A stretch of 64,000 bases of DNA. It comes from Candidatus Magasanikiibacteriota bacterium (GTDB taxonomy: Bacteria > Patescibacteriota > Patescibacteriia > Magasanikbacterales > GWA2-37-8). This document shows, piece after piece, positions 14,072 to 55,902 of this stretch (the stretch's first letter is position 1; every line of letters begins with the position of its first letter). Below the pieces are notes generated by a model. The model saw nothing but the letters and a program-made list of their open reading frames with translations, did no database searches and was not told where the DNA came from. The stretch lies in contig CAWJAS010000001.1 in assembly GCA_963840935.1 (NCBI GenBank), positions 579,834 through 643,833 on the forward strand, written 5' to 3'. Both the position numbers and the translations under genes were made by a program.

Positions 14072-15922
14072 TTAATTAAGTACCGCCTTAATTCGCCTCA
14101 CGCCGGCACTCACCGCTTCTTCTTTGATAATTTTGAAAGCGCCTAGTTCACCGGTATTTTTTACATGAGGGCCCCCGCAAATTTCACGACTGAAAGTGAG
14201 TGAATTTTCACTGGCGGAGGGTTTTTGGTCAGGGTCGCCAACAGAATATACTTTGACTTTGTTGCCGTATTTGTCATCAAACAACCCCATCGCCCCCTTT
14301 GCTTTTGCTTCGGCCACGGGAAGCTCTTCGCAAACTATCGGATAATTTTTATTGATAGCGTAATTAACCAATTCTTCAACGCGCTTTTTTTGTTCTTCAG
14401 TTAATTTCTCGGGATGCGAAAAATCAAAACGCAAACGTTCGGCGGTAATATTGCTTCCTTTCTGTTCCACGTGCTCACCCAAAACCGCGCGCAAAGCGCA
14501 TTGAAGCAAATGAGTGGCCGTGTGATATTTGACCGACATTTCACCTTGGTCGCAAAGCCCGCCTTTAAACTTTTTTTCCGCACCGGCGCGCGACAAATCC
14601 TGATGAGCCCGAAAGGCATGCTCAAAACCTTCAACCTCAACCGTCATTCCGTTTTCTTGCGCCAACTCCACGGTCATTTCAAGCGGAAAACCATAGGACT
14701 CATATAATTTAAATGCCTGCATCCCGCTTATCTCATTTATTTTCTCTCCGGTTTCTTCTTCGGCCTTGGCAAAACTCAAAACCAGTTTGTCAAATTCTTT
14801 AAGCCCTTGTTCAATTGTATTTCTGAATTTGCTTTCTTCTTTTGCCATTTCGGTCAAAACAAAATTTTTGTTGCAAACCAGTCCGGAATAAACCAACCCG
14901 AATAAATTAATTACTTCTTCGGCGATAGTACTGCAAAAATTTTCTTTCAAACTAATAATTCGACCATGACGCACTGCCCGACGAATCAAACGGCGAACAA
15001 TATATCCTTGGTCAACATTACTTGGAGCGACTCCCCTGTCGTCCCCCATTATCATCACGGACGCGCGAATGTGGTCCGCGACAATGCGCAATGATTTTGT
15101 GATTTCCGCGCTTTCAGTGTAATTATGGCCGGACAATTCTTCAATTTTTTGAATTATCGGGCGTAGGGTATCAACTTGAAACACATCGCCTAGTCCGTTC
15201 AAGGCAACGAGCGTCCGTTCAAGCCCCATTCCGGTATCAACATTAAATTGTTTAAGAGGAATATATTTTCCATCAGTTGTTTTATTGTATTGCATGAAAA
15301 CATTGTTCCAAATTTCGAGCCAGTTATCCGGGTCTGTTTTTGGGTCGCTTGATTCTGGCGGGAATTCACTTTCACCGCGCCACCAAAAAATTTCCGTATC
15401 CGGTCCGCATGGTCCTGTTTGACCGGCCGGTCCCCACCAATTATCCGCTTTTGATAAATAAGCGATTTTGTTTTCCGGCACTCCGCAATTTTTCCAAATC
15501 TCGGCTGATTCTTCATCTCGTGGCGCGTCATCGTCGCCTTCAAAAACCGTGACAGCGATTTTTTTGGGGTCCAAATTCAGCCAAGCCGGTGAAGTCAAAA
15601 ATTCCCAGCTCCATTCAATTGATTCTTTTTTAAAATAATCCCCAAGCGACCAGTTGCCGAGCATTTCAAAGAATGTGGCATGCCTATTGTCGCCAACATC
15701 ATCAATGTCTCCGGTACGAATGCATTTTTGCGCGCTGACCAATCTCTTGCCATCGGGATGAGATTCACCAAGCAAATATGGAACCAAGGGATGCATTCCG
15801 GCGGTGGTAAAAAGCGCTGTCGGGTCGTTTTCAGGAATCAAAGAAGCCGAAGGAATAATTTTGTGGTCCTTGGAAACAAAAAAATCCAAATATTTTTGTC
15901 TTAATTCAATTGATGAAATCAT
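14072..15922 (-). CDS. alaS: alanine--tRNA ligase lacking the C-terminal C-Ala domain
   Basis: The class II core 'FTTAGMHPLVPY' is present, together with the editing-domain motifs 'HTATHLLQ' and 'CGGPHV'. The gene ends right after the editing domain. The start is set at 'MISSIELRQ' to avoid overlap with mnmA. Confidence 0.82.
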   Translation of the reverse strand: MISSIELRQKYLDFFVSKDHKIIPSASLIPENDPTALFTTAGMHPLVPYLLGESHPDGKRLVSAQKCIRTGDIDDVGDNRHATFFEMLGNWSLGDYFKKESIEWSWEFLTSPAWLNLDPKKIAVTVFEGDDDAPRDEESAEIWKNCGVPENKIAYLSKADNWWGPAGQTGPCGPDTEIFWWRGESEFPPESSDPKTDPDNWLEIWNNVFMQYNKTTDGKYIPLKQFNVDTGMGLERTLVALNGLGDVFQVDTLRPIIQKIEELSGHNYTESAEITKSLRIVADHIRASVMIMGDDRGVAPSNVDQGYIVRRLIRRAVRHGRIISLKENFCSTIAEEVINLFGLVYSGLVCNKNFVLTEMAKEESKFRNTIEQGLKEFDKLVLSFAKAEEETGEKINEISGMQAFKLYESYGFPLEMTVELAQENGMTVEVEGFEHAFRAHQDLSRAGAEKKFKGGLCDQGEMSVKYHTATHLLQCALRAVLGEHVEQKGSNITAERLRFDFSHPEKLTEEQKKRVEELVNYAINKNYPIVCEELPVAEAKAKGAMGLFDDKYGNKVKVYSVGDPDQKPSASENSLTFSREICGGPHVKNTGELGAFKIIKEEAVSAGVRRIKAVLN

Positions 15923-15927
15923 AATAA

Positions 15928-17079
15928 TTATTTTATCTCCCCTCCGCCCAAGCAAACGCCCTTAGAATAAAACACGGCGAATTGCCCCGGTGTTACCGCG
16001 CGTTGCGGTTGCGCGAATTTTACGATTAGATTACCACGTCGGCCTTTGGCCTTCTCGCAATGACATTGTTCAAGAGCCTGTCGGTGTCTAAGCCGTACTT
16101 CACATTTTAGCGGAAATTTGGGCTCTCGTCCAGCAATCCAATTGATATTTTTGACTTCCGCTTCGTTTGAATAAAGCATCGGGTCATTTTCAAATCCAAC
16201 TATCAATTGATTTTTTTTTGTATTTTTACCAACAATATATACCGACCGTTGGCTCTCATTTTTTAAACCAATTCTTTCTCCGATCGTATAAAAAGCCAAA
16301 CCGTCGTGCTCACCCAACACTTCACCCTTGGTTGAAGTGATGACGCCTTTTTTTGGTTTTATGGTTTTCATCAGGAATTTTTTCATCGGCACTTCGCCAA
16401 CAAAACAAATCCCCATGCTTTCTTCTTTTTGAGCCGTGGGCAAGCCGAATTTTTTGGCCAGATCCCTCACCTTCGTTTTTGGATACTCACCGATGGGAAA
16501 AATTATCTTTTTTAATTGCGTTTGATTAAGCTGATGCAAAAAATATGTCTGGTCTTTATTATCATCTTTTGCCGACAATAATTTGATTTTTTCTTTTTGT
16601 TCTTTTTTTGGAAATTTGATATTTGAAATTTGGAATTCCCGGTTTAACCGGGCATAGTGCCCGGTCGCCAAATAATCAAAACCTAATTTTTTTGCCTTTT
16701 GAAGCCAAGCGCCGAATTTAACAAATTTATTACACAGTACATCCGGATTCGGAGTTCTCCCGGCTTTGTATTCGCGGTACATATAGTCAAGCACAAATTT
16801 TTTGTACTCTCGCTTAAAGTCGAAACGCAAAAGAGGAATACCGATTTTTGCTGAAACCCGTAAAGCATCTTGATAATCGCCTCTCCAACAGGGCTTCGCT
16901 TCGCTACGCCCTGCAAGCGCCTCATGGGTGAATTTATCTGTAAAATCTTCATAATTAACCATAAAAGCGCCGGTCACATCATAGCCCAAGCGAACCAAAA
17001 GAGCGGCGGATACTGAAGAATCAACCCCGCCGGACATGGTGCATAATACTTTAATTTTTTTTGGTTTCGCGTTTTTCAT
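15928..17079 (-). CDS. mnmA: tRNA-specific 2-thiouridylase MnmA
   Basis: The PP-loop 'CTMSGGVDSSVSA' and the C-terminal 'AVTPGQFAVFY...CLGGG' are present. Two internal segments share DNA identity with the dispersed repeat family. Confidence 0.85.
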   Translation of the reverse strand: MKNAKPKKIKVLCTMSGGVDSSVSAALLVRLGYDVTGAFMVNYEDFTDKFTHEALAGRSEAKPCWRGDYQDALRVSAKIGIPLLRFDFKREYKKFVLDYMYREYKAGRTPNPDVLCNKFVKFGAWLQKAKKLGFDYLATGHYARLNREFQISNIKFPKKEQKEKIKLLSAKDDNKDQTYFLHQLNQTQLKKIIFPIGEYPKTKVRDLAKKFGLPTAQKEESMGICFVGEVPMKKFLMKTIKPKKGVITSTKGEVLGEHDGLAFYTIGERIGLKNESQRSVYIVGKNTKKNQLIVGFENDPMLYSNEAEVKNINWIAGREPKFPLKCEVRLRHRQALEQCHCEKAKGRRGNLIVKFAQPQRAVTPGQFAVFYSKGVCLGGGEIK

Positions 17080-19898: not shown

Positions 19899-22052
19899 TT
19901 AATTAGTAAATTCTTTTGATAAAATTTTATCTTCAATAAGCAAATAGCATTTTTCGGCTCCGGTTAAATCTCGGGCTTGATTCCATAAATTTTCGTCATC
20001 ACTGCTATTTTTTATTTCATTATATAAAACCATGAGTTCGCTTTGTCCAAAATCTTTATCAATCGGGAAACCTCCGCCGATAACTTTTTTTGCCGACAAA
20101 GCTTCCAAAGCTAAAAGCGGATAGGTATCGGCGATAACGCAATAATTTTTCGAACCGTTAATTTCTTCCCAAATAATTCGCGCCGATTGATATTCGGTTT
20201 CACTCATTGATCGACTGGTTGGACCGAGCGAATATGATGACGCAATTCCAATGGAAAATATAAAAATAAAAAGCAAGGGGAAAAATGCTTTTTTTGTGAA
20301 CATTTTTTGAAGCCAGGCAAACATAAAGACAATGCCAAATACAGCGATTATTGGCTCGAGTCTTCGGCTGAGCAAATGACTGCCATCCAAAAAATATCGA
20401 CAAATTAAATAACCGACAATTACCCCGAGCGACAAAATAATAAATAACTTGTCATAACTCTCCCCTCTTTTTTTCATTTGGCGCGCTCCAAAAAAAATGG
20501 CGACAACGGCAAAAATCATCAAAACAACAATCCAGTATCTCCACTCCGTAAAACCGTTTGGCACAAATCCGTAAGTTGGCGCCTGATTAAAAAATATGTT
20601 GCCGGCTTCAATCAGGTGAGGCCTTGGACCATTCGCCAAATAAAAACCGCTAATATTTCCAACCAATTGTTTGGCCGATGAAAACAAGTTAATTTGAGAA
20701 TTTATTTTTGAATATCCGGCTACGATTTCAAGCAATGGGATTGCCAAAACAGAAAATATTAACAAGCCGGCAAGCATCCATTTCTTTAGTTTGTCTGAAT
20801 GATGTTTGTTTGAATACAAAATTTTCTCAACAATAATCCAACCAAGAGCAAATAAAATCAAATATAAACTATAACCAAAAAAAGAAATAAAAAATAATAA
20901 TGCCAAAGCGGGAATTTGAAAATTATTGGGCGATGAAATTCTTTTAATGAGTAACAACAAAATTATTAGGAAAAACAATAAGCCAAAATTAACAGGCAGT
21001 GAAAACGCGCCAGCCGAATGCAAAGCAAACGGCCATAATCCAAGCCATGCCAAAAATAATGACTTTCTTTTTCCAAAATTCAAGACAACACCAAGCTGAT
21101 ACAAAATTATGGGTAATATTATGCCGGCAATAATCGGTTGTAGCCAAGCGATTAATGCAATCAAATCAATACCGGTCGTTTGATTCACTGTGGAAACAAC
21201 TCCCCAGAATTGGCTGTAAGCAAAAAGGCCCGGATTAATCCGCTCAACCCAATTTCCTTCAGCCGAATAGTTCACAATTTCAACCGACCCGCTATTTTTC
21301 ACTTGCTCCAATATGGCCAAGTGCCTCCACCCATCCGCGCCCCAAAACAAATTACTGCTAAGAGGCAAATACGAGAGCATTGCCAAGTAAGCGATAATAA
21401 TTAAAACCAAAATTGATTTTATAGAAATTTTGGAAAAAATCAAAGCGCCCAAAATCAAAGTCGATAAAAAAAATAAATAAATATAATTTCCGGAAATTAT
21501 TTGCCACGGAGTAATAAGCGCGCCGTCAAACAACGATGATTTTGTCAAAAAATACAATCCGGAAATAATTAAAAAAAGAAAAATAACAATATAATATTTT
21601 TTGGGTTCCAAATCAACCGTCTCTTCTTCCATTTCTTTTATTTCTTCATTTTTTTGGCCTTCCACCTTCGGTTTTATTTCACCGGCCAAAACCGAAAATA
21701 ATCCTATCACCAAAAATATTAAGGCAATAATAACCGAATTTAAACGACCGAATAGAATAAATATTCCGGAAAGCGACCCGATAAATGCAAACGACAAAAA
21801 ACCGGCCAAAATTCGAGCGCAAATTTTATCGGTTAAATGGAAAATGCCGGCCAAAAACTTTTCAAATCCGATTGATGAAAAAAATAAAAACAAACCAAGC
21901 ACCATGAGTCCCAACCAGTTCAAATGCCAGAATTCGGCGTTAAAAAAAACCAAAAAAGAAACCAGGCAAAATATAATAATTTTTTTGTATAAGATATTAT
22001 TCATAAACTGAATTATACTGATAATTGACAATTTTGGCAAAGAATCGTACAT
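19899..22052 (-). CDS. large polytopic membrane protein (~14 TM) with C-terminal soluble domain; function unknown (possibly GT-C-like)
   Basis: Hydrophobicity pattern only. It is divergent from the CDP-alcohol phosphatidyltransferase gene. Confidence 0.4.
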   Translation of the reverse strand: MYDSLPKLSIISIIQFMNNILYKKIIIFCLVSFLVFFNAEFWHLNWLGLMVLGLFLFFSSIGFEKFLAGIFHLTDKICARILAGFLSFAFIGSLSGIFILFGRLNSVIIALIFLVIGLFSVLAGEIKPKVEGQKNEEIKEMEEETVDLEPKKYYIVIFLFLIISGLYFLTKSSLFDGALITPWQIISGNYIYLFFLSTLILGALIFSKISIKSILVLIIIAYLAMLSYLPLSSNLFWGADGWRHLAILEQVKNSGSVEIVNYSAEGNWVERINPGLFAYSQFWGVVSTVNQTTGIDLIALIAWLQPIIAGIILPIILYQLGVVLNFGKRKSLFLAWLGLWPFALHSAGAFSLPVNFGLLFFLIILLLLIKRISSPNNFQIPALALLFFISFFGYSLYLILFALGWIIVEKILYSNKHHSDKLKKWMLAGLLIFSVLAIPLLEIVAGYSKINSQINLFSSAKQLVGNISGFYLANGPRPHLIEAGNIFFNQAPTYGFVPNGFTEWRYWIVVLMIFAVVAIFFGARQMKKRGESYDKLFIILSLGVIVGYLICRYFLDGSHLLSRRLEPIIAVFGIVFMFAWLQKMFTKKAFFPLLFIFIFSIGIASSYSLGPTSRSMSETEYQSARIIWEEINGSKNYCVIADTYPLLALEALSAKKVIGGGFPIDKDFGQSELMVLYNEIKNSSDDENLWNQARDLTGAEKCYLLIEDKILSKEFTN

Positions 22053-27951: not shown

Positions 27952-27980
27952 TTGACAATTCCTACCAAAAATGATACTCT
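27952..27980 (+). promoter_or_regulatory. sigma70-like promoter with extended -10 (TTGACA-17-TGaTACTCT) for the HD gene
   Basis: The -35 box is at 27952-27957, with a TG at 27972-27973. Confidence 0.4.
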
Positions 27981-28026
27981 AATCAATCAGGTTCTTTAAC
28001 AAGCAACAACCAAAAAGGAGGGATTT

Positions 28027-28779
28027 GTGAACATACACGAGGTGCGTTCGACACGCGAAGTCGAGCAGTTTGTGACCGATGAATTTACGGCTCACAATTT
28101 TGACGTTGATTTGATTCACGGACTCAGGCATCTCCGTCGCGTTCGGGCCGAGTATGAAAATATTCGCCTGATGTGCGCGGACATGCTGGAACCCGAGCTG
28201 GTCAAGTGCTTGGGTGTGGCGGTGGCTGTCCATGACCTGGGCAGGATTCGCGAAGGCAACCACGCGGAAAATTCCGCGGAAATGTTTCGCTCCATGCCAA
28301 TCGAGGACCTGACGGCGGATGAAATCGAGGCAATCTACTACGCCGTCAAATACCACAATCGCGGGCTGGAATCACTCGGCATCGATAAGGCCGAAACATT
28401 CCAAGACAAGCTTTTGGGACTTTTGTGCCTTTGCGACCATGCCGACGCCGCGAGTACCGAAGGAGCGGCTCGTGCCGCTCTGCACATGGCGAACGTCAAG
28501 GCGCCGATCCTGTCCACTCGATTCTCGGCCGACCACCTGCGCGCCATAATGGTTCAAGGCGCTTCCCCGAGCATGATGAACGACTACAAGAACGACAGCT
28601 TGGTGGCGCACTGGGCGTACAACTACTTCGCCGACTTCTCCATCTGTTGCCCAATATTGCACCTTTTGAACACGCGATATTACGACGAGTGCCACGCCCC
28701 AAACGTGGTCATGTACCGCGCCCTCATCGAACCGCTTCTGATACTGCAAGAAGCGACCGATGAAGTCGCTTCCTTGTAA
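28027..28779 (+). CDS. HD-domain phosphohydrolase-like protein, GC-rich (compositionally foreign)
   Basis: It has a GTG start with the RBS 'aaggaggg', and the H...HD motif 'IHGLRHL...VAVAVHDLGRI'. The codon usage is strikingly GC-rich compared with its neighbours. Confidence 0.6.
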   Translation: MNIHEVRSTREVEQFVTDEFTAHNFDVDLIHGLRHLRRVRAEYENIRLMCADMLEPELVKCLGVAVAVHDLGRIREGNHAENSAEMFRSMPIEDLTADEIEAIYYAVKYHNRGLESLGIDKAETFQDKLLGLLCLCDHADAASTEGAARAALHMANVKAPILSTRFSADHLRAIMVQGASPSMMNDYKNDSLVAHWAYNYFADFSICCPILHLLNTRYYDECHAPNVVMYRALIEPLLILQEATDEVASL

Positions 28780-28806
28780 ATCGCACCTTGGTTGTTTCTT
28801 ATTATG

Positions 28807-28838
28807 CCCCGCGCCAAAAACGCGGGGCTTTTCTTTTG
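28807..28838 (+). terminator. rho-independent terminator after HD gene
   Basis: 'ccccgcg-ccaaaaa-cgcgggg' is followed by 'cttttcttttg'. Confidence 0.6.
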
Positions 28839-28869
28839 TCATTGCGAGGATGTTTTGGAGAGTCAACGT

Positions 28870-28910
28870 TTTCCCCCTCTTGATAAGAGGGGGCTGAGGG
28901 GGAGTCTACA
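28870..28910 (+). repeat. palindromic repeat copy B
   Basis: The sequence is 'ttccccctcttgataagagggggctgagggggagtctacac'. It overlaps the stop of the galE-like gene. Confidence 0.8.
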
Positions 28911-29817
28911 CACCAAATTCTTTTTTCAACTCACGAATCCCCTGTTCCAAACTAACTTCCGGTTTCCAATCAAGTAATTTTTTGGCAAGCGATATGTCGG
29001 CTTCCGTTTTTCTCGGGTCGCCGGCGCGCGGGTCAATATTCACCGTCGGACCGCCAATTAATTTCGCGAGTTCATTAACCGAACAACTCTCCCCACTCCC
29101 GATATTTATTACCTCGCCCTTACCTGCGGATTTACCCACCATGGCCATCAAATTTGCTTTGGCAATATCCGCCACATGCACGTAGTCCCTGTAATATTCC
29201 CCATCTCCGCAAATGGTCATTGGCTGATTGTTTTTTCTTTGGTCAATGAATTTACCCACAACAAGAGCATATGCCCCTTCAGGGTCAAAATATGGGCCAT
29301 AGACGTTAAAATAGCGCAGGCTGACAGTTTGCAACCCATAAGCTGAACTAAACAAGGCGCAGTATTGTTCGCCAATCTGCTTATGAAGCCCATAAGGACT
29401 CATTGGGTTTGGCAAAAAGGATTCTTTGACCGGAAATTTTTCTTGGTCGCCGTAAACCGCGGCCGATGAAGAAAACACCACGCGCTTAATATTATTTTCT
29501 TTGGCACAAACCAAAACATTCAAAGTACCGTTAACATTCGTATTGTGCGTTTCAATCGGTTGTTCCATTGAATACGAAACTCTGGGCAATGCCGCCAAAT
29601 GAAAAATACCATCAAAACCGCCGGCGCAAACTTTGTTTAATTTTTCAAAATCACAAATATCCAAATCAATATATTCGGCTTTTTCGTGCAAGCGTTCTTC
29701 TTTGCGCCCGCCCGCGTAATTATCCACCACCACAACTTCATGATTTTCACGAAGAAGTAATTTTACCAAATTAGCGCCGATAAAACCGGCTCCGCCGGTA
29801 ACTAAATATTTGCTCAT
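28906..29817 (-). CDS. NAD-dependent epimerase/dehydratase (UDP-sugar 4-epimerase-like)
   Basis: The Rossmann 'VTGGAGFIGANL' and a YxxxK catalytic motif are present. Confidence 0.75.
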   Translation of the reverse strand: MSKYLVTGGAGFIGANLVKLLLRENHEVVVVDNYAGGRKEERLHEKAEYIDLDICDFEKLNKVCAGGFDGIFHLAALPRVSYSMEQPIETHNTNVNGTLNVLVCAKENNIKRVVFSSSAAVYGDQEKFPVKESFLPNPMSPYGLHKQIGEQYCALFSSAYGLQTVSLRYFNVYGPYFDPEGAYALVVGKFIDQRKNNQPMTICGDGEYYRDYVHVADIAKANLMAMVGKSAGKGEVINIGSGESCSVNELAKLIGGPTVNIDPRAGDPRKTEADISLAKKLLDWKPEVSLEQGIRELKKEFGV

Positions 29818-33263: not shown

Positions 33264-34058
33264 TTATATTCTTAACCAATTTGATGGCACAATATCCATT
33301 TGTTTGGCTTTTTTATCATTGAACCATTTTTTTGGCGCAATCACAATTTTTTCGGAATTATCATTCAACCACGCCCCCCACCAACTAAAACTGCTATTGG
33401 CAATAATATTGTGTTTGCATTTGCTCATCAAAATTAATTCTTCAATATCTTCGATTTCAGGGCAAGAAACAAAAACAAATTCATTGCCTTTCAAATTTTC
33501 TTTCGCCCAGTGAATATCATCCGAAAAAACAAAAAAAATCGGATTATTTATTTTTTCTTTAATTATTCTCGTTGCTTCATTGTAATAATCCAAACCGCAA
33601 ACACCATGATAGGCGTTAATTTTTTTATTCGCCACATAATCCCCCCGCCTTATGTGCAACGAAACAGAATCGCTATTTTCTATTCTTTGCAAATATTCTT
33701 TTGCTGGCGCCGAAAAATCATTTTTTAAAGTAAATTCTTTTCTAATTTTATCGGCAATACCAATAAAATATTTTTCATTCTGATAATATTCATCAACAAA
33801 AAAACCCAACCGTCTTTTTATTTTATTCAAATAATTAATAAATAAATCTTTTTTGGTGATAAATTTACCAAACCTTGTTTTTGTTTGAATATTAAATTTA
33901 TTCAATTTAAAAATCCTGGCCGTATCAACAACGGGCTTCGCGCCGTCAAAAAAAGAAATATCAAAAGCAATTCGCTTCCCTGCAATTTCCAAATTTCTGC
34001 CATAGGCATATTGAAACATCTGGTTTCCGAGACCGCCTTTGATTTTGATAGCACGCAT
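33264..34058 (-). CDS. alpha-1,2-fucosyltransferase (GT11 family)
   Basis: 'IKGGLGNQMFQYAYG' is the GT11 motif I. Confidence 0.7.
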   Translation of the reverse strand: MRAIKIKGGLGNQMFQYAYGRNLEIAGKRIAFDISFFDGAKPVVDTARIFKLNKFNIQTKTRFGKFITKKDLFINYLNKIKRRLGFFVDEYYQNEKYFIGIADKIRKEFTLKNDFSAPAKEYLQRIENSDSVSLHIRRGDYVANKKINAYHGVCGLDYYNEATRIIKEKINNPIFFVFSDDIHWAKENLKGNEFVFVSCPEIEDIEELILMSKCKHNIIANSSFSWWGAWLNDNSEKIVIAPKKWFNDKKAKQMDIVPSNWLRI

Positions 34059-43962: not shown

Positions 43963-44922
43963 TTAATGCATAATAGCAAATGAATAATTATTTTTAAACC
44001 AATCAACGGTTTCTTGGATACCTTTTTCAAGCGAAGTTTCCGGTTGCCAACCCAAAGTTTCTTTCATTTTTTTGATTCCAAATGTTTTTTTCAGAGCACC
44101 ATCAGGCTTATCCGTATTAAAAGTAAAATCACCTTCATAGCCAATTACCTTCTTTATTGTTTCCGCCAAATCAATTACGGAAATTCCCACACCGGAAGCG
44201 ATGTTAATCGGCGCAACATCATCATAAAGTTCAGTCGCTTTCAAAATACCTTCCGCGCCATCTTTCACATACAACCAATCACGAATCGGTTTGCCCGAAC
44301 CCCAAATTTCAACAGTCGGCGCATTGTTCATTTTAGCTTCATAAATTTTTTTAATCAATCCCGCAAGAGCCTTGCTTTGTTCCGGGTTAAAGTGCTCACC
44401 CGGTCCATACATATTTGCCATTATCAAATGGATGGAATTAAAATTATGCTGTTTTTTGAGAGCCAACCCATAAACAGCCGTTGTTTTTCTTGAAAATCCA
44501 TAACTAAAAATTAATTCATGCACTTCACCATTCCAATAATCATTTTCATTTAATTCATCCTTTTCCAGGTAGCCGGGATAGGAACAGCCGGCAATAATAT
44601 TTACAAATTTTTCCACGCCATTTTGTTGCGCTGCTTTCATTAAAAAGGTTCCCATCATTAAATTATCAAAATACAAATCCGCTTGTTTGCCACTATGAAA
44701 CCCAATTCCTCCCTGCCATGCCGCACAATTTATCGCGACATCTGGCTTATGCGTGCTAAAAAAACGCTCACAATTCGCGAGAAGGCGAAAATCCCATCCA
44801 TCCGCGGTTCTGGGTATTATTATTTTACAATTGGCGCGTTTTTTTATGGACTCAATAATATGCTTGCCAAAAAAACCCCCACCCCCAAGCACGGCCACTT
44901 TTTTTTGATTGAGATTTAACAT
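43963..44922 (-). CDS. GDP-L-fucose synthase-like NAD-dependent epimerase/reductase (intact Fcl paralogue)
   Basis: 'VAVLGGGGFFG' is followed by 'AGCSYPGY...YGFSRK' and '...IWGSGKPIRDWLYVKD', which run parallel to the GMER motifs. Confidence 0.5.
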   Translation of the reverse strand: MLNLNQKKVAVLGGGGFFGKHIIESIKKRANCKIIIPRTADGWDFRLLANCERFFSTHKPDVAINCAAWQGGIGFHSGKQADLYFDNLMMGTFLMKAAQQNGVEKFVNIIAGCSYPGYLEKDELNENDYWNGEVHELIFSYGFSRKTTAVYGLALKKQHNFNSIHLIMANMYGPGEHFNPEQSKALAGLIKKIYEAKMNNAPTVEIWGSGKPIRDWLYVKDGAEGILKATELYDDVAPINIASGVGISVIDLAETIKKVIGYEGDFTFNTDKPDGALKKTFGIKKMKETLGWQPETSLEKGIQETVDWFKNNYSFAIMH

Positions 44923-44924
44923 AT

Positions 44925-46235
44925 TTAACTATTTACATTACTTAACAACAATTTTTTATTGCCAATTAGAATCGCGAGAGCGCCCACTGAATATGAAATC
45001 ATTGTTGCCCAGGCGGCGCCGGTAATGCCAAAATTGGAGATTAGGATAAAATTAAGCGCGATGTTTAACACCATCAAAAATAAATAAAAATAAAAAATTG
45101 TTTTCAAACGATTTTCCGCCAAAAAATATTGGTAAAATCCGGCGTTTAAAAAGAATCCTACTCCCGACCAAACATATATTCGTAAAATTCCGATTGATTC
45201 AAAATAGGCGTTGCCAAATAAAAAGTTCACTATTATTGGGGCGAATGCAGACAAGAGCAAGGCGATTACAACCGCCATTCCGCCAAGCAAAAAATATAAT
45301 TTTCGTAACCGGCTGAAAAATTTTTCTTGGCTTACTTTTCTTGCGTTTATTATGGCCGGAAGTAATGAACCGCAAATTATACCCGGAATAAAATACCAAA
45401 TTTCCACTAATTTTATAGCGGCAGAGTACAACCCGACTGCTGTTTCATCCAAAAAATGCCTGATCATCACTTGGTCAACACGCAAGAATATATATCCGGC
45501 GGCGGCGGCCAAAGCCAGAAGCCAAGCGCCTGATAAAATTTGTTTTGCCAGACGAACATCAAATCTCCAAGTGCTGAATTTGTAGCCACTTTTTAAATAA
45601 TTGAAAATGTACAATGCGAGAAGGGTTAATGATTCAACAACAAAAATTGCCATTAACCAAATAATCCCCTGTCCGGTCAAAATCAAAATTACTTTCAAAA
45701 CCGAAGCAACCAGCGCGGAAATAACTGTCGCCTGGACATTCTTTTTTGCCTGAACAGTTGATTGAAAATAAACGCTTATCACCCCAAATGCTGACCATAA
45801 AAAAGTTGAAGCGTATAAAATAATCAATCCTCGAACAAAATTTGATGATTCGAACAAAAGAGCGGAAATGAGAATTAATATAAAAGCGGTGATACTCCCA
45901 GCAAGCAATAATCCAAAACCGGTCCCCATTAGCTCGTCTTTTTTTTCGGGATTCTTTGCCAAATCTCGAAGTAAAATATTATGGATGCCCAAATAAGCAA
46001 TGAAAGTAAAAAGTCCGACAAACGCGACCGAGTAGCTTATGATTCCGTAATTTTCAGGGCCCAAATAACGCGCCAACCAAGCGCCGATAAAAAAAGAAAC
46101 AACAAGCGAAAACATTTGCCCAATAAACATCCAGCCGGTATTGGCAAAATATTTTTTGAACCCGGCGTGTTCCAAAATCCACTTCCAGCGCTCGGGTACA
46201 ATTTTGTTAATTTTTTGAAATAGAATGTCTATCAT
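44925..46235 (-). CDS. polysaccharide flippase (Wzx/MOP)
   Basis: The protein has about 12 TM helices with Wzx-like architecture. The start is at an internal Met to avoid overlap. Confidence 0.65.
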   Translation of the reverse strand: MIDILFQKINKIVPERWKWILEHAGFKKYFANTGWMFIGQMFSLVVSFFIGAWLARYLGPENYGIISYSVAFVGLFTFIAYLGIHNILLRDLAKNPEKKDELMGTGFGLLLAGSITAFILILISALLFESSNFVRGLIILYASTFLWSAFGVISVYFQSTVQAKKNVQATVISALVASVLKVILILTGQGIIWLMAIFVVESLTLLALYIFNYLKSGYKFSTWRFDVRLAKQILSGAWLLALAAAAGYIFLRVDQVMIRHFLDETAVGLYSAAIKLVEIWYFIPGIICGSLLPAIINARKVSQEKFFSRLRKLYFLLGGMAVVIALLLSAFAPIIVNFLFGNAYFESIGILRIYVWSGVGFFLNAGFYQYFLAENRLKTIFYFYLFLMVLNIALNFILISNFGITGAAWATMISYSVGALAILIGNKKLLLSNVNS

Positions 46236-46237
46236 AA

Positions 46238-47191
46238 TTAAATTGCTGAGTTTTGGTACCATTTGTAGGTAGATTCCAATCCTTCTTTCAATTCAAATTT
46301 TGGTTGCCAACCAAGATTATTGACTTTTGAACTGTCCATCAATCTTCCGGGGGTTCCGTCGGGCTTGGTTGTATCCCAAACAATATTTCCTTTGTATCCC
46401 GTAATTTCTTGAATCAAGTTTGCCAAATCTTTGATGTTTATATCTTTTCCAGCGCCCAAATTTACAAATATATCCCCTTTTTCATTTTGCTCTTTGGTCG
46501 GATTCAAATTATTCATGAGAAATATACAACCCTCTGCCATATCATCCACGTGCAAAAATTCACGACGAGGATTGCCTGTGCCCCAAAGTATTACTTCTTT
46601 ATCACCTTTAATTTTCGCTTCATGGAATTTGCGAATCATTGCCGGAATTACATGTGATTTTTCCAAATCAAAGTTATCATTAGGGCCATATAAATTAGCA
46701 GGCATTACGGAAATAAAATTTGTGCCATATTGACGATTGTAACTCTGACACATTTTTATGCCGGCGATTTTTGCCAAGGCGTACGGCTCATTGGTTGGCT
46801 CCAAAGTTCCGGTTAATAAATATTCTTCTTTGACGGGCTCTGGGGCAAATTTTGGATAAATGCAAACCGAACCCAAAAATAAAAGTTTTTTTACTCCGTT
46901 TACGTATGACTGGTGAATAATATTATTTTGAATTTGCAAATTTTCGTATATAAATTGTGCCGGGTATGTATTGTTTGCTTAAATCCCGCCGACTTTGGCG
47001 GCGGCCAAAATTACATACTCCGGTTTTTCTTGCGCGAAAAATTCGGCAGTTGCCTGTTGGTTTGTTAAATCAAGTTCTTCGATAGTGCGATAAACCAGAT
47101 TGTTGTAACCTTGGGCTTGCAAATTGCGGACCAAGGATGAACCGACAAGGCCGGTGTGGCCGGCGATGTAAATTTTGGATGTTTTTTGCAT
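46238..47191 (-). pseudogene. fcl: GDP-L-fucose synthase (fcl) interrupted by an in-frame TAA at 46979-46981
   Basis: The N-terminal part '[19 protein letters not shown]...AAKVGGI*' is followed in the same frame by '[22 protein letters not shown]...[13 protein letters not shown]'. The alignment to E. coli Fcl is collinear across the stop. Confidence 0.6.
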
Positions 47192-47203
47192 AATTTTTAA
47201 ATA

Positions 47204-47437
47204 AAATTCTTCGCTTCGCTCAGAATGACAGGTAACTGGATTCCCGCCTACGCGGGAATGACAGTGTGCGAATAAGATTGCTTCGGCGTCCCTTTGGGAC
47301 TTCTCGCAATGACAGGGCTTCGCTTCGCTACGCCCTGTAAACGCCAGGTTCACTTATTAACTACGCCCTGTAAACGCCAGATTCGCTTCGCTCAGAATGA
47401 CAACGAACTGGATTCCCGATCAAGTCGGGAATGACAA
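47204..47437. repeat. cluster of short GC-rich hairpin repeats (units ending ...cgc(t/a)(cag)aatgaca, and cagggcttcgcttcgctacgccctg) filling gmd-fcl spacer
   Basis: There are at least five sub-elements, and the same units recur at 16043, 16889, 28838, 50921 and 51226. Confidence 0.8.
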
Positions 47438-48448
47438 TTAGGATTCGCACATTATGGCTACGAGCTCTTTGAATTTAACTTTCGGTTCCCAACCAAGAAT
47501 ATTTTTTGCCTTGGTGGCATCGCCCAAAAGCAAATCCACTTCAGCCGGTCGAAAATATCGCTCATCAATTTCAATAATTGTTTTACCGGTATTTTTATCA
47601 ATTCCTTTTTCATCTTTTCCACTGCCTTGCCAAACAATATCAAAACCAAAAAAATTTCCCGCAGTTTCCGCGAATTCCCGCACAGTATGCGTTTCACCTG
47701 TGGCTATCACATAATCATCCGGTTTATCTTGCTGGAGCATCAGCCACATCGCTTCTACATAATCCTTGGCATATCCCCAATCGCGTTTGGCATCAAGATT
47801 ACCCAGATAAAGTTTTTCTTGTTTTCCTTCTTTGATATTTTTGAGCGCGTCGGTAATTTTTTTGGTGACAAAAGTTCCACCCCTGCGTGGCGATTCATGA
47901 TTAAACAAAATTCCATTGCAGGCAAACAAACCGTATGACTCGCGATAATTAACGGTTAAATAATGCGAATAAACCTTGGCGCACCCGTATGGACTGCGAG
48001 GATAAAACGGGGTGGTTTCTTTTTGCGGAGTTTCTTGAACTTTGCCAAACATTTCTGATGAGCCGGCTTGATAAAATTTTGTTTTTATACCCGATTCTTT
48101 GATCGCGTCAAGCAAGCGCAAAGTGCCGAGCCCAACGGTGTTACCGGTGTAAACCGGCATGTCAAAACTGACCTTCACATGACTTTGCGCGCCCAGATTA
48201 TATATTTCATCCGGCTTAATTTGCTCCAATAGTCGAGAAATATTACTGCCGTCAGTCAAGTCGCCATAATGCAAAAACAATTTTACTCCATTTACATGCG
48301 GGTCCTCATAAAGATGGTCTATACGCGAAGTATTAAAAGTACTGCTCCGGCGAATGAGGCCGTGGACTTCATAACCTTTTTCCAAAAGCAGTTCCGCCAA
48401 ATATGAACCGTCTTGACCGGTAATGCCGGTGATTAAAGCTTTTTTCAT
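47438..48448 (-). CDS. gmd: GDP-mannose 4,6-dehydratase
   Basis: '[19 protein letters not shown]' is present, and the C-terminal '...VAIMCES' resembles E. coli Gmd '...VAIALES'. Confidence 0.9.
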
Positions 48449-50463: not shown

Positions 50464-50657
50464 TGAGTGGAATAAAAAATGCCGTGTAAATAAGAATTTT
50501 GATAAGAAGCTCTAATTTTTGGCGATACATAAATTATGCTAAAAATCCGGACTTGCCGGTTGAATAATATTCATATATTTTATGGCAAAATGGAAGCAAT
50601 GTCAAACGAATTAATCTTGATTATTTGGGGAATTAATGATATTTTATTTTAATAATA

Positions 50658-50699
50658 GACTCCCCCTTAATCCCCCTCTTAATAAGAGGGGGGAAACTG
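50658..50699 (-). repeat. palindromic repeat copy C (inverted relative to A/B)
   Basis: The sequence is 'gactcccccttaatccccctcttaataagaggggggaaactg'. Confidence 0.8.
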
Positions 50700-50707
50700 C
50701 AAGAAAT

Positions 50708-51226
50708 ATGAAATATATTGCCAAAAATGAAGCGGAAACCGTTAAAATAGGCGAAAAAATCTCTGCCAAGCTTAAAGGCGGAGATATTTTGTGTTTGTAC
50801 GGGGATTTGGGCGCCGGAAAGACTACTTTGGTAAAAGGGTTGGCGAAAGGGTTTGGGATAACAAAAGAGGTGGTTAGTCCGTCGTTTGCGATTATGAATG
50901 TTTATGAAATTGGTGATTGCCGAAGGGATTCTTCGACTTCGCTCAGAATGACAGGGCTTCGCTTCGCTACGCCCTGTAAACGCCAAGCTAACTTAACTAT
51001 GCCCTGTAAACGAAAAAGCACAGTAAAACAGTTGGCGCATTTTGATTTGTATCGTTTAAAAGATGTTGAAGAATTTTTGGATACGGGTGGAGCGGATTAC
51101 TTGGGCGCGCCGGACACGATTTGTGTTATTGAATGGCCGGAAAAAATTGAGGAGCTTTTGAAAAATAAAAAAACGATTGACATAGCAATCGAGCATTTAA
51201 AAAATGGGAGAGAAATTAAATTTTAG
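50708..51226 (+). CDS. tsaE: tRNA t6A biosynthesis ATPase TsaE with ~30-aa in-frame repeat-derived insertion
   Basis: The P-loop 'GDLGAGKTT', 'SPSFAIMNVYE' and 'HFDLYRL' are present. A repeat-encoded segment lies between the last two motifs. Confidence 0.75.
   Translation: MKYIAKNEAETVKIGEKISAKLKGGDILCLYGDLGAGKTTLVKGLAKGFGITKEVVSPSFAIMNVYEIGDCRRDSSTSLRMTGLRFATPCKRQANLTMPCKRKSTVKQLAHFDLYRLKDVEEFLDTGGADYLGAPDTICVIEWPEKIEELLKNKKTIDIAIEHLKNGREIKF
50921..51012. repeat. dispersed hairpin repeat copy inside tsaE ORF
   Basis: 'cttcgacttcgctcagaatgacagggcttcgcttcgctacgccctgtaaacgcca...' is near-identical to 47381-47345. Confidence 0.8.
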
Positions 51227-51848
51227 GAGATTGCTTCGTCGACCCTTTGGGGCTCCTCGCAATGACAAGACGAACGTGGGATTGCTTCGGCGTCCCTTTG
51301 GGACTTCTCGCAATGACAGATAAGGAAAATTCGCAACCGCAATAATTTTGCCTATATATCCCCCGCTCTGATGTTAATTTTTGCCCTTTTTCTTGCCTGC
51401 CTTTGCTTTTCCAATTTTCATCCAAAAATTCCAAACCGAACTCATCCGCCAAGCGCTTTCCAATTCCGCCGATTATATCGGCGTTTTTGTTTCTGCCACT
51501 GGTCAAACTTGAGGCAAATATTTTAATATTATTTTCTTTGGCGTACTCCGCGGTTCGTTTTAGGCGCGATGCAAAACATACGGCGCATCTTTTGCCGGAT
51601 TCAGGCTCACCCTCCATTCCAGCAATCGCTTTTTTCCAGCTTTCGTGTTCATAATCAAGGTCGATGAATGGCACGCTCCATTCATCGCACACGCGGATAA
51701 CTTCGGCTTTGCGCTTTTCGTATTCATTTTTTGGAAAAATATTGGGATTATAAAACAAAACCGTTAAATCATATTGATTTTTCAGTTCATCAATAATTGC
51801 GATACTGCATGGAGCACAGCAAGCATGAAGCAAAAGCTGTTTTGCCAT
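51216..51848 (-). CDS. queH: epoxyqueuosine reductase QueH (DUF208) with repeat-derived C-terminal tail
   Basis: 'LLLHACCAPCS' and '...YCGCEFS' are present, followed by a 34-aa tail '[35 protein letters not shown]'. Confidence 0.75.
   Translation of the reverse strand: MAKQLLLHACCAPCSIAIIDELKNQYDLTVLFYNPNIFPKNEYEKRKAEVIRVCDEWSVPFIDLDYEHESWKKAIAGMEGEPESGKRCAVCFASRLKRTAEYAKENNIKIFASSLTSGRNKNADIIGGIGKRLADEFGLEFLDENWKSKGRQEKGQKLTSERGIYRQNYCGCEFSLSVIARSPKGTPKQSHVRLVIARSPKGSTKQSPKI
51226..51320. repeat. two tandem copies of the 'gattgcttcg(g/t)cg(t/a)ccctttggg(a/g)ct(t/c)ctcgcaatgaca' unit
   Basis: Direct sequence comparison with 47270-47313. Confidence 0.8.
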
Positions 51849-51851
51849 AAA

Positions 51852-53873
51852 TTATTTTTCAAACTTACCGGAAACAAGGGCAATCGCCTGACCGATCCAA
51901 TTTTCCACTTCTTTAATATCCAGTTCGCCAATTCCTCCTTTTTCCAAACGGCAAATAACTTTTAATTTGCCGGACGAGTCTTCGGTCACGGCAATGTTTT
52001 TGAAATGTTTTATTTCCATTCGCGATAACTCTTCATTCAATCGTGCCTCGTCGGATGCAGGTATTCCTTTCATTTGTTCAAGAATTAATTCCGCCAAACG
52101 CATCTTTTTTTCAATCTTCTTGCACATTTCACTGCCGTTTTCGGCTCTTTTGATGGCCGTCAAATGGTCGCTCAATAATTCATCGCTCTTTGCATCTTTA
52201 CTGTGGCGCTCGGAACCGCCGACCACTGTTTTTACCACTCTGGTGCCGGTTTCATTCTGAAGCGCAAGCATAAATTCTTCAAATACTTTCTGGTCACCCT
52301 TGTCTTCAATGGCCAAAGCGATTTCATCTCCGCCCACTCTGTCAATCGGGTCGGCGTCAGGAAAATATTTTTTGAACACCTCAAGCGCTTTTGCTCTGAT
52401 AGCGCGCATATTTTCCGTGATTTTATCACCGGCGACAATTGAGGCCTCGCGTAATTTTGTTTCGTCCTCACCCACTTCCTGAATCAATTGTTCATATTCC
52501 AAAAGCAAATCAACGCCCAAATCCAAAACATCGATATTTATATAAACACAATCTTTTAATTCAGATGCTTTTTTGTGAAAAAACTCCGGCGCGTCATAAG
52601 TTCCGTCTTTTTGGTCGGTTTTTAATTCGGCGGATAATTGTTCTCTGTCCGTTTGCGACAAATCGGCTTTCAAAACATATTTGCCTTCTTCGTTTTTTTC
52701 CACAAACTTTGACATTCTGTCAATTCGCGCGCTGATTTCACCGCCGACCGCTTCTTTGGCGGTAAACGGCTTTACCAAGTCAACAAGATTGATACGACGG
52801 ACATATTGCTGAACCATTCTGAATGTGTCAGCGTCGGAATCTTCCGGCTTGAATTGTCCTTTTCTTGTCAATCGCAACAAATCTCTATTCATGATTCTTT
52901 TACCATCTTTTTCTGTGAATACTTTATATTTAATTCCCATTTCATCGGTAATGGTTTTATCCAATAATTTATCGCCCAATTCATTGATGCCGTGTTCTCC
53001 TTTTATTTCATTAACCACGTTTTCGCGGTCATAGGCGCCACCATATGAATCTTTTGATAAACGACGCGACAACTGCGCTGTTTGAGCGCATTCGGCCAAA
53101 GCTTGAATAATATTTGATTTATCTGTTTCGTTTTGCGACTGGTCAACAACGCTTGTGCCAAAATTTATGCGATAACCCTCACCATCAGAGCCAAGCAAAT
53201 CACGCATTCTTGCGTATTTGCCCACATCCGCATCCCCGTCTTCGGCCAAGCGCGAATCAATCGCGGAATTAATCACTTCTTTCATTCGATTGTTGAGCGC
53301 GGATGAAATCGCGTTCATATCTTCTTCCGGCAGGGCTTCACCTGTTTTTGACAACTTGAACGACGCGCTTCGATAATCTTGCGATAACAACTCGTGCCCA
53401 GACTCGGCCATTAATTCATTCAAAATCTTTTTTCTGCTGTCGATTATGGAATCGGTTACTTGTTCGCCAAAAAGAGTATTCAAATTTTTAACCGAAAATT
53501 CACCACCCGGAGACGAAAAATATGCCATGGAATCCCCGGCTTTTAATTCTTTAAACATCGCGAACCAGCCCCGTTCTTTTATCATTCCGCCCAGTCGTTC
53601 GCGGTCGCTTTCTGAAAGTTCAGCGCCATTTTCAAGCGCTTCAACCAAGCTAGCCCTATCCAAATAATTTTTGACGCGCTCAATTGCCGACCGGTCTATC
53701 TTTGATTCGGATTCCGCTCCCAATTCGGCGGAAATACCATGAAGTATCGCATCGGCATCTCTTGGAAGAATTTCTCCAATATATTTGGGCAATTTTTCGC
53801 TCGACTCCGGGGCTTTTTTTGGTTCTGCTGACATATTATGTTCATTTATATTTTTTGCTCTTTCTGCTTCCAT
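51852..53873 (-). CDS. large acidic hypothetical protein with C-terminal GGDEF-like palm motif ('RVGGDEIALAI')
   Basis: Near the C-terminus the order IDVLDLGVD ... AGDKI ... RVGGDEI matches D-x-D / GD / GGDEF. Confidence 0.45.
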   Translation of the reverse strand: MEAERAKNINEHNMSAEPKKAPESSEKLPKYIGEILPRDADAILHGISAELGAESESKIDRSAIERVKNYLDRASLVEALENGAELSESDRERLGGMIKERGWFAMFKELKAGDSMAYFSSPGGEFSVKNLNTLFGEQVTDSIIDSRKKILNELMAESGHELLSQDYRSASFKLSKTGEALPEEDMNAISSALNNRMKEVINSAIDSRLAEDGDADVGKYARMRDLLGSDGEGYRINFGTSVVDQSQNETDKSNIIQALAECAQTAQLSRRLSKDSYGGAYDRENVVNEIKGEHGINELGDKLLDKTITDEMGIKYKVFTEKDGKRIMNRDLLRLTRKGQFKPEDSDADTFRMVQQYVRRINLVDLVKPFTAKEAVGGEISARIDRMSKFVEKNEEGKYVLKADLSQTDREQLSAELKTDQKDGTYDAPEFFHKKASELKDCVYINIDVLDLGVDLLLEYEQLIQEVGEDETKLREASIVAGDKITENMRAIRAKALEVFKKYFPDADPIDRVGGDEIALAIEDKGDQKVFEEFMLALQNETGTRVVKTVVGGSERHSKDAKSDELLSDHLTAIKRAENGSEMCKKIEKKMRLAELILEQMKGIPASDEARLNEELSRMEIKHFKNIAVTEDSSGKLKVICRLEKGGIGELDIKEVENWIGQAIALVSGKFEK

Positions 53874-53964: not shown

Positions 53965-55902
53965 TTATAATTGTACTCGGAATAACCGCCAGTCGGACCA
54001 AGAAGTGTATGTGCCGTCCGTAAACTTTGCGCGGACGCGCACTCTGTATTCATTTGAATATTTGAGGTCCAAACCGACGCTGGTTAAAACTGAAGTGTAC
54101 AATCCTTCTTCAAGCCAGCCGGTGCCCGATTTGTAATTAACATTAATTTCGTATGACACGGCGCCGGTAATGGTATACCAAGTCGGAAAAACATATCGTG
54201 AATATAATGTTTGATTTTCTGTTGGCGTGGAAATGACAGGCGAGGTGTAGCTGTATGATGAGCCGATGTTATAATTGAAATATCTATAATCAGACCAATT
54301 GGTGTAATTGCCGTCACTAAAATTCGCTCTTACTTGAACGCGATATTCATTTGTATAATATAAATATTTAGTCAAATAAAGCGAAGTTACATTTGTGTTT
54401 GATTCAATAAGCCAGTTGCTTCCTGATTTGTATTCAACACGGACATTGTATGAAGTCGCGCTAGGAACTGAATTCCAACGAACAGTCACGGATTGGCTGG
54501 ATGAAAAATATTGGTTCGCATATGGATCGGTGATTGTCGGCGGAGATTGCGGGTTATAATAACTGTCGCTTTGACCAATATTAAAATATCTCCAATCGGA
54601 ATAATTGGTAGTAACGCCATCAACAAAGACACCACGAACACTTACGCGATATTCATTTGTGTATGGAAAGTATTTGGTTAAATAAAGAGAAGTGACATTT
54701 GTGTTTGACTCACTATACCAATTTCCATTTGATTCATATTCGATTCGAACATCATAAGCCGTCGCATTTGTGACCGAATTCCATCTCACGGTTACATTTG
54801 AGCCGGTAGAATAATATTGGTTGGCGTATGGTTCGGTGATGGTCGGGGCAGTGTAGGAATAATTGTTATTACTTTGTCCGACATTGAAATATCTCCAATC
54901 GGAATAATTGGTAGTAACGCCATCAACAAATACACCGCGAACGCTCACTCGATATTCATTTGTGTAGGAAAAATATTTGGTTAAATAAAGAGAAGTGACA
55001 TTTGTGTTAGACTCACTATACCAATTTCCATTTGATTCATATTCAATTCGGACATCATAAGCCGTCGCATTTGTGACCGAATTCCATCTCACGGTTACAT
55101 TTGAGCCGGTAGAATAATATTGGTTGGCGTATGGTTCGGTGATGGTCGGAGCAGTGTAGGAATAATTGTTATTATTGTTGTTGTTTGTGGAATAAGTATT
55201 ATAAAAATATCTCCAAGAAGACCATTCACTTTTGTTACCCAAATTGTCTCCGGCATAAACACGATAGCGGAATTGTCCATCACCCCAATTTGATATGTTG
55301 TAATTAACAGCACTCACGCCGGAAGAAATAATTTGAGAATCCTTGCTTTCCCATTGGCTCAAAGAAGTATTCCATTTATGAACTTCGTAGCCGTATTTGG
55401 TGGCGGAATTCACATCAGACCAATCAAAATATATTGAGGATTGATTATATTGTTCCCCATTGTTTGGAAGATTAATACTTGGTGTGCTTAATTTTGTTTG
55501 ATTTTTGGTATTGAAAGTAAAATATCTATATTCAGACCATTGGCCGACTTGGTTGTTCCACATATTGCCGACCGCGCGCACACGCCAGCGAAATTGATTG
55601 TCGGCTCCGGGAACTGTAACGCTAAAAGTATTGCCGACGACATTATATGTTCTGGCATTTTGCCATTTAATTGTTTTGCTAACGCAAGTGTCGCAAGCGA
55701 TTTCCACTTGATAATTATTGGCTCCATAAATGGAAGTCCAACTGAAATTAGCCATCCTCGGATAATTGGTCAAAACCTGATTATTTGTGGGATAGCTGAG
55801 CGACGGCGCGTTGTAGGCGGCCTTTGCCGGATATGATATGCCAAAAGCCGTAAAAATAACGGCAAAAACTAAAACCCAGTTAAAAATGCGATTCATTTTC
55901 AT
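53965..55902 (-). CDS. secreted/cell-surface protein with four ~100-aa tandem beta-rich (FN3/Ig-like) repeats
   Basis: A signal peptide 'MKMNRIFNWVLVFAVIFTAFGISYPAKA' is present. Repeats 2 and 3 are nearly identical at the DNA level. Confidence 0.6.
   Translation of the reverse strand: MKMNRIFNWVLVFAVIFTAFGISYPAKAAYNAPSLSYPTNNQVLTNYPRMANFSWTSIYGANNYQVEIACDTCVSKTIKWQNARTYNVVGNTFSVTVPGADNQFRWRVRAVGNMWNNQVGQWSEYRYFTFNTKNQTKLSTPSINLPNNGEQYNQSSIYFDWSDVNSATKYGYEVHKWNTSLSQWESKDSQIISSGVSAVNYNISNWGDGQFRYRVYAGDNLGNKSEWSSWRYFYNTYSTNNNNNNNYSYTAPTITEPYANQYYSTGSNVTVRWNSVTNATAYDVRIEYESNGNWYSESNTNVTSLYLTKYFSYTNEYRVSVRGVFVDGVTTNYSDWRYFNVGQSNNNYSYTAPTITEPYANQYYSTGSNVTVRWNSVTNATAYDVRIEYESNGNWYSESNTNVTSLYLTKYFPYTNEYRVSVRGVFVDGVTTNYSDWRYFNIGQSDSYYNPQSPPTITDPYANQYFSSSQSVTVRWNSVPSATSYNVRVEYKSGSNWLIESNTNVTSLYLTKYLYYTNEYRVQVRANFSDGNYTNWSDYRYFNYNIGSSYSYTSPVISTPTENQTLYSRYVFPTWYTITGAVSYEINVNYKSGTGWLEEGLYTSVLTSVGLDLKYSNEYRVRVRAKFTDGTYTSWSDWRLFRVQL
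54584..55190. repeat. 2 x 303-bp near-perfect tandem repeat inside surface-protein gene
   Basis: 'aaatatctccaatcggaataattggtagtaacgccatcaacaaa...' recurs at 54584 and 54887. Confidence 0.8.

Follow-up and report, generated by a model that had tools for sequence, protein, structure and literature searches.

The gene for GDP-L-fucose synthase (fcl) in the 64-kb stretch of DNA analysed here, which comes from an uncultured, Magasanikbacteria-like Patescibacteria genome and is referred to below as the window, occupies 46238..47191 on the minus strand. Its frame comprises 317 codons and a terminal TAA and is interrupted at codon 71 by an in-frame TAA (46979..46981). A single C>T substitution probably turned Gln71 into this stop, giving a genuine and very young null allele in the majority of the genomes behind the assembly. 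Judged by its sequence, the locus would be classed as an fcl pseudogene or null allele, orthologous to bacterial Fcl/WcaG.

Identity of the interrupted gene

Translation of the minus strand from 47191 to 46238 gave a single internal stop within the 317 codons, and the C-terminus of the frame read YKWYQNSAI before the terminal stop. The frame was compared with the model of the Fcl family (NCBIfam NF047922, EC 1.1.1.271). With X placed at the stop, it matched profile positions 2-303 of 308 at 482.5 bits, confirming the preliminary description of an in-frame TAA in an otherwise intact minus-strand fcl. With Gln restored the score was 483 bits, and the next best family reached ~80 bits. The equivalog cutoff of NF047922 is 500 bits. 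As the four closest intact sister proteins also scored only 472-480 bits, the shortfall appears to be a property of the clade and not a sign of damage.

The preliminary description had called the gene collinear with E. coli Fcl, and this was upheld by alignment with E. coli GMER (PDB 1bws), which covered residues 5-313 at E=2e-114 with no rearrangement. E. coli Fcl/WcaG (PDB 1bws, 1e6u) is a GDP-4-keto-6-deoxy-D-mannose 3,5-epimerase/4-reductase whose gene likewise adjoins gmd. The two proteins share 309 collinear residues, the GxxGxxG N-terminus (GHTGLVGS at residues 11-18 of the window copy), the Ser-Tyr-Lys triad and the Cys/His pair. Residues S108, Y137, K141, C110 and H180 of the window copy align with E. 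coli S107, Y136, K140, C109 and H179; the catalytic triad and the Cys/His epimerisation pair are therefore all present, and all lie downstream of the stop. Where the window copy has TAA, the E. coli protein has Val70; the window copy also falls in a Patescibacteria clade in which intact proteins score just below the family cutoff. The alignment of the stop with Val70, in the context GGIVANN, also means that the E. coli sequence quoted earlier for this position was wrong.

Membership of the Fcl family was further assessed by the GxxGxxG motif with the triad and the Cys/His pair, an uninterrupted frame of ~320 aa, and association with gmd and a fucosyltransferase. The motif and all five residues were found by sequence alignment, and gmd lies 246 nt upstream, with a GT11 gene in the same co-directional cluster. 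The frame itself is broken by the TAA at codon 71.

Translation from the native start should yield no more than the N-terminal 70 codons (46982..47191, minus strand), which carry the GHTGLVGS motif and matched profile positions 2-67 of 308 at 73.7 bits. In the list of open reading frames the gene is split into a 124-aa upstream stretch, within which the ATG at 47191 opens 70 codons, and a 233-aa ORF that begins at a TTG at 46939 (46238..46939, minus strand). This internal TTG, at codon 85, is the only downstream restart, and the residual ORF lacks residues 1-84, including the NADP-binding N-terminus. The 233-aa ORF is present in the public protein collection as P0078, on a single 770,905-bp contig (NCBI, ENA), and it is the sole member of its cluster. 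The deposited record thus carries the interruption, which did not arise during extraction of the window.

Origin and age of the stop codon

The preliminary description had asked for a comparison with sister genomes. We read codon 71 in the four closest intact relatives, from Magasanikbacteria-like genomes (P0001/L081, P0002/L082, P0003/L107 and P0004/L105), whose proteins of 317-318 aa are 88-92% identical to the window copy. All four were uninterrupted. Since the codon is CAA in L081, L105 and L107 and CAT in L082, one transition suffices, and the lesion would most simply be a change of Gln71 from an ancestral CAA to TAA by C>T at 46981 (G>A on the plus strand). An origin from a leucine codon (TTA>TAA), suggested by the Leu and Met of distant relatives, was dropped after the four closest sisters had been read.

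The stop had previously been said to replace a conserved hydrophobic residue. This was not the case, as the column proved variable among 119 homologues (L65, M37, G5, Q4, H2, F2, S2, V1, I1), with Leu or Met prevailing in more distant relatives and Gln in the closest. No stop was found at codon 71 in the 77 genome loci where this codon was read, in 22 metagenome loci with the flanking peptide preserved, or in the 119 database proteins. An exact 32-base DNA pattern with codon 71 wildcarded had no match in metagenome contigs, and look-ups by the exact sequence of Gmd or the 233-aa fragment gave no other copy. The closest GTDB-representative genomes were at most 73% identical at the protein level, and the best matches were Magasanikbacteria/Patescibacteria MAGs.

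Selective constraint was estimated by the Nei-Gojobori method. Comparison of the window with the four sisters gave dN/dS values of 0.041-0.069 overall and 0.037-0.062 downstream of the stop, and comparisons between intact sisters gave 0.037-0.087. By this measure, constraint on fcl is equal before and after the stop, and equal to that in intact-sister pairs. When three outgroups were used to polarise amino acid changes, four were derived in the window copy (the stop, L97V and two in the variable C-terminal tail) and six in sister L081. The window departs from four otherwise invariant sisters at 17 nucleotide positions, 11 of them third positions; outside the last five codons, the stop-creating C>T is the sole first- or second-position change among the 17. 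Among the changes specific to the window lineage, the stop alone is non-conservative. At columns at least 90% conserved in the 119 homologues, two deviations were observed, both mild: S19, common to 8 other homologues, and L229, common to 1. The earlier statement that there is no other damage is consistent with the low dN/dS, the intact catalytic residues and the mildness of these two deviations.

The pairwise dS between the window and L081 is 0.72. By a rough estimate, neutral evolution for a few percent of the L081 branch would add some ten or more non-synonymous changes, and none of the non-synonymous decay expected under neutrality was seen in fcl. Because these changes are absent, the stop appears to be either very recent or not real. 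With dS values of 0.7-1.6, the sisters are distant. From dN/dS it follows that any inactivation was recent, not that inactivation occurred. Within that limit, the very recent nonsense mutation put forward in the preliminary description is well supported: CAA is one transition from TAA, and both a second lesion and relaxed constraint are absent.

Gene neighbourhood

The genes said earlier to be intact were so. Upstream of fcl, gmd (47438..48448, minus strand), which supplies the Fcl substrate, scored 581.6 bits against TIGR01472 (cutoff 415). The GT11 alpha-1,2-fucosyltransferase-like gene (33264..34058, minus strand), the presumed user of GDP-fucose, scored 131 bits against PF01531 and retains an N-terminal GGLGNQMFQYA motif. 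A Wzx/MOP-family flippase gene (44925..46262, minus strand) lies immediately 3' of fcl; its start overlaps the 3' end of fcl, and this arrangement recurs in sisters. Several GT2 and GT4 enzymes and FkbM-type methyltransferases are also encoded in the cluster.

The cluster further holds a divergent Fcl-family paralogue of 319 aa (43963..44922, minus strand), which scored 209 bits on the Fcl model (cutoff 500) and 185 bits against PDB 7ll6. An orthologue with 80% identity adjoins the flippase gene in L082, alongside an intact fcl. Because the paralogue is not an Fcl equivalog and its orthologue coexists with intact fcl in L082, it is probably a different enzyme, one acting on another branch from the Gmd product and not a backup Fcl. 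It may thus be another consumer of that product. The Ser of its SDR triad is apparently replaced (AGCSYPG versus GSSCIYP).

Sisters L081 and L105 keep the gene order of the window, queH-tsaE-wzy/TPR-gmd-fcl-wzx, whereas the downstream glycan genes vary between genomes. Such variation in glycan-cluster content is typical of surface-polysaccharide loci under diversifying selection.

The spacer of 246 nt between gmd and fcl (47192..47437, no strand assigned) consists of TGTCATT-type hairpin repeat modules. It is absent in L081, where the two genes are 1 nt apart, and shorter in L105 (L105 5876-6000). The modules are hairpins of 25-40 nt starting with TGTCATT, for example TGTCATTCCCGCGTAGGCGGGAATCCAG and TGTCATTGCGAGAAGTCCCAAAGGGACGCCGAAGCAATC, and the spacer as RNA folds at -84.7 kcal/mol (z=-3.8). 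Further copies of the modules lie at 50942-50995 and 51229-51319, with weaker ones at 16045-16065 and 16879-16932 that fall in an mnmA-like ORF (15928..17079). Taken together, they look like a mobile REP/MITE-like repeat family. The copy at 50942-50995 belongs to an in-frame insert of these modules in tsaE (50636..51226, plus strand). This insert varies in length among the window, L081 and L105, and the flanking TsaE sequence is conserved. Within this essential gene the modules seem to expand while the frame stays open.

Other features of the window were noted in passing. Three tandem copies of ~300 nt (65-93% identical) at 54250..55158 lie within a 645-aa ORF (53965..55902, minus strand) that has only a faint Ig-like Pfam match and is probably a repeat-domain surface protein. 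Two minus-strand ORFs, of 717 aa (19899..22052) and 673 aa (51852..53873), had no Pfam match at E<=0.001; the latter has a syntenic counterpart upstream of queH in L081 and L105.

Competing explanations and consequences

Apart from fcl, the only interrupted gene found in the window, all genes checked among the 53 ORFs were uninterrupted, which suggests a clean assembly. This bears on the possibility that the deposited T is a sequencing, polishing or consensus artefact, or a promoted minority variant, and that the organism has CAA or another sense codon. We regard such an error as unlikely, although it deserves serious attention: a single-base lesion with no accompanying decay is also how an error would look, and the allele is uncorroborated, there being one assembly of the species in the collections searched. 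However, finished consensus sequence rarely contains substitution errors, and none of the genes checked was split by a frameshift. C>T is moreover the commonest mutation type, and we estimate that a genome carries several-fold more young nonsense alleles than consensus errors that create a stop codon. A miscall linked to a methylation motif was also considered, as the ancestral GATTC matches the motif GANTC. The window contains 188 copies of GANTC where 187.9 are expected; with no depletion, there is no sign of a systematic motif-linked miscall, and this candidate was rejected as unsupported.

We give little credence to a more elaborate reading, in which the stop is a real and selected OFF allele within a natural episymbiotic Patescibacteria population, diverting GDP-4-keto-6-deoxymannose through the paralogue, or else a weakly read-through attenuator of dosage. 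If the former were true, loss of fcl with gmd kept would yield a different 6-deoxyhexose and a swap of surface glycan, with phage escape or altered host attachment; under the latter, weak read-through at the stop would attenuate the dosage of fucosylation.

Read-through was also considered in its own right. The stop could be real but leaky, UAA being read by a near-cognate tRNA or by a suppressor tRNA encoded elsewhere, so that a little full-length Fcl is made from a down-tuned allele kept under selection. The 246 codons downstream of the stop are perfectly preserved, as such an allele would require; recency explains this preservation equally well. The tolerance of the position (L, M, G, Q, H, F, S, V and I occur there) implies that any inserted residue would probably give an active enzyme, and few natural terminators here share the 3' context TAAG (2 of 40 TAA stops). 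UAA is nevertheless the most efficiently terminated codon in bacteria. It is also the usual terminator in the window, ending 40 of the 53 ORFs, and a strong suppressor would therefore be harmful. A search of the 64-kb window for suppressor tRNAs or RNA elements (Rfam, ARAGORN) found only tRNA-Glu(CTC). The stop is, in addition, not shared by the relatives in which codon 71 was read. On these grounds we hold a leaky stop to be very doubtful.

Reassignment of TAA is not supported for this genome, in line with the earlier view that recoding is unlikely, given its use as a terminator, the lack of a suppressor tRNA in the window, and the nature of the other same-frame pairs. We inspected all 36 same-frame ORF pairs (two stretches of at least 60 codons with one stop between them). 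The plausible ones were unrelated neighbours by Pfam, namely AlaRS/GtrA, S4/RpoA, PriA/Def, GT2/GT4, the 673-aa ORF without Pfam match/QueH, and MraY-like/DUF192. A triple ORF at 27979-29817, considered as an interrupted gene, was rejected as the shadow of a plus-strand HD-domain gene. The alanyl-tRNA synthetase (14072..15955, minus strand) is only 627 aa long and lacks the C-terminal C-Ala/DHHA1 domain; its TAA is followed by one codon and then, in the same frame, by the unrelated GtrA-family membrane protein.

A phase-variable ON/OFF switch, or a functional Fcl in two pieces (the 70-aa N-fragment and the 233-aa C-fragment), we consider highly improbable, even though the gene sits in a variable surface-glycan cluster that differs among sisters, the type of locus where contingency switches occur. 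A phase-variation-like state had been offered in the preliminary description and found no support here: Tandem Repeats Finder reported nothing in 46000..47600, no letter of the local sequence GGCGGGATTTAAGCAAAC is repeated more than 3 times in a row, reversion of a point substitution is not frequent, and the stop did not recur in the genome loci, metagenome loci and proteins surveyed. The site has neither a slipped-strand nor an invertible switch of the classical kind. In scans for promoters and terminators around the locus, counts did not differ from those in shuffled sequence. A two-piece enzyme is unlikely because the product from codon 85 would lack both the cofactor-binding N-terminus and the conserved segment 71-84, and a split Fcl was absent among the full-length homologues retrieved.

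Under the preferred reading, a young null allele created by one substitution, translation from the native ATG would halt after 70 residues, the first part of the NADP-binding Rossmann fold. Ser108, Tyr137, Lys141, Cys110 and His180, all downstream of the stop, would never be made, and a product restarted at the TTG would be without the segments noted above. The allele should then be null for GDP-L-fucose made de novo. With this synthesis lost, the GT11 fucosyltransferase of the same glycan cluster would be deprived of its donor, and the Gmd product would be left for other branch enzymes, such as the Fcl-like paralogue. The predicted outcome, barring rescue by the paralogue or by a salvage route (Fkp), is a surface glycan that lacks fucose.

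Bacteria routinely vary their glycans through loss-of-function point mutations in surface-sugar pathways, for instance when phages or the host exert selection, and nonsense and missense changes in GDP-sugar genes are documented as a path to phage resistance. Phage-resistant isolates of Yersinia enterocolitica carried a manC nonsense mutation, p.Gln71*, and a gmd missense mutation (bioRxiv 10.64898/2026.03.24.713101). In both cases one nonsense substitution hits a nucleotide-sugar gene of a surface-glycan cluster that is otherwise intact. The parallel is an analogy only.

There is nothing new in the mechanism, which is that of an ordinary recent gene knockout or possibly a sequence error, and the finding matters mainly for annotation. 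The label fcl pseudogene or null allele (Gln71*) is appropriate in place of a 233-aa 'epimerase', and de novo synthesis of GDP-fucose should not be taken for granted when the metabolism of this genome is reconstructed. If the allele is not real, it is a consensus error that needs correction. If it is real, it would provide a small example of glycan variation by point mutation in a candidate-phyla-radiation bacterium.
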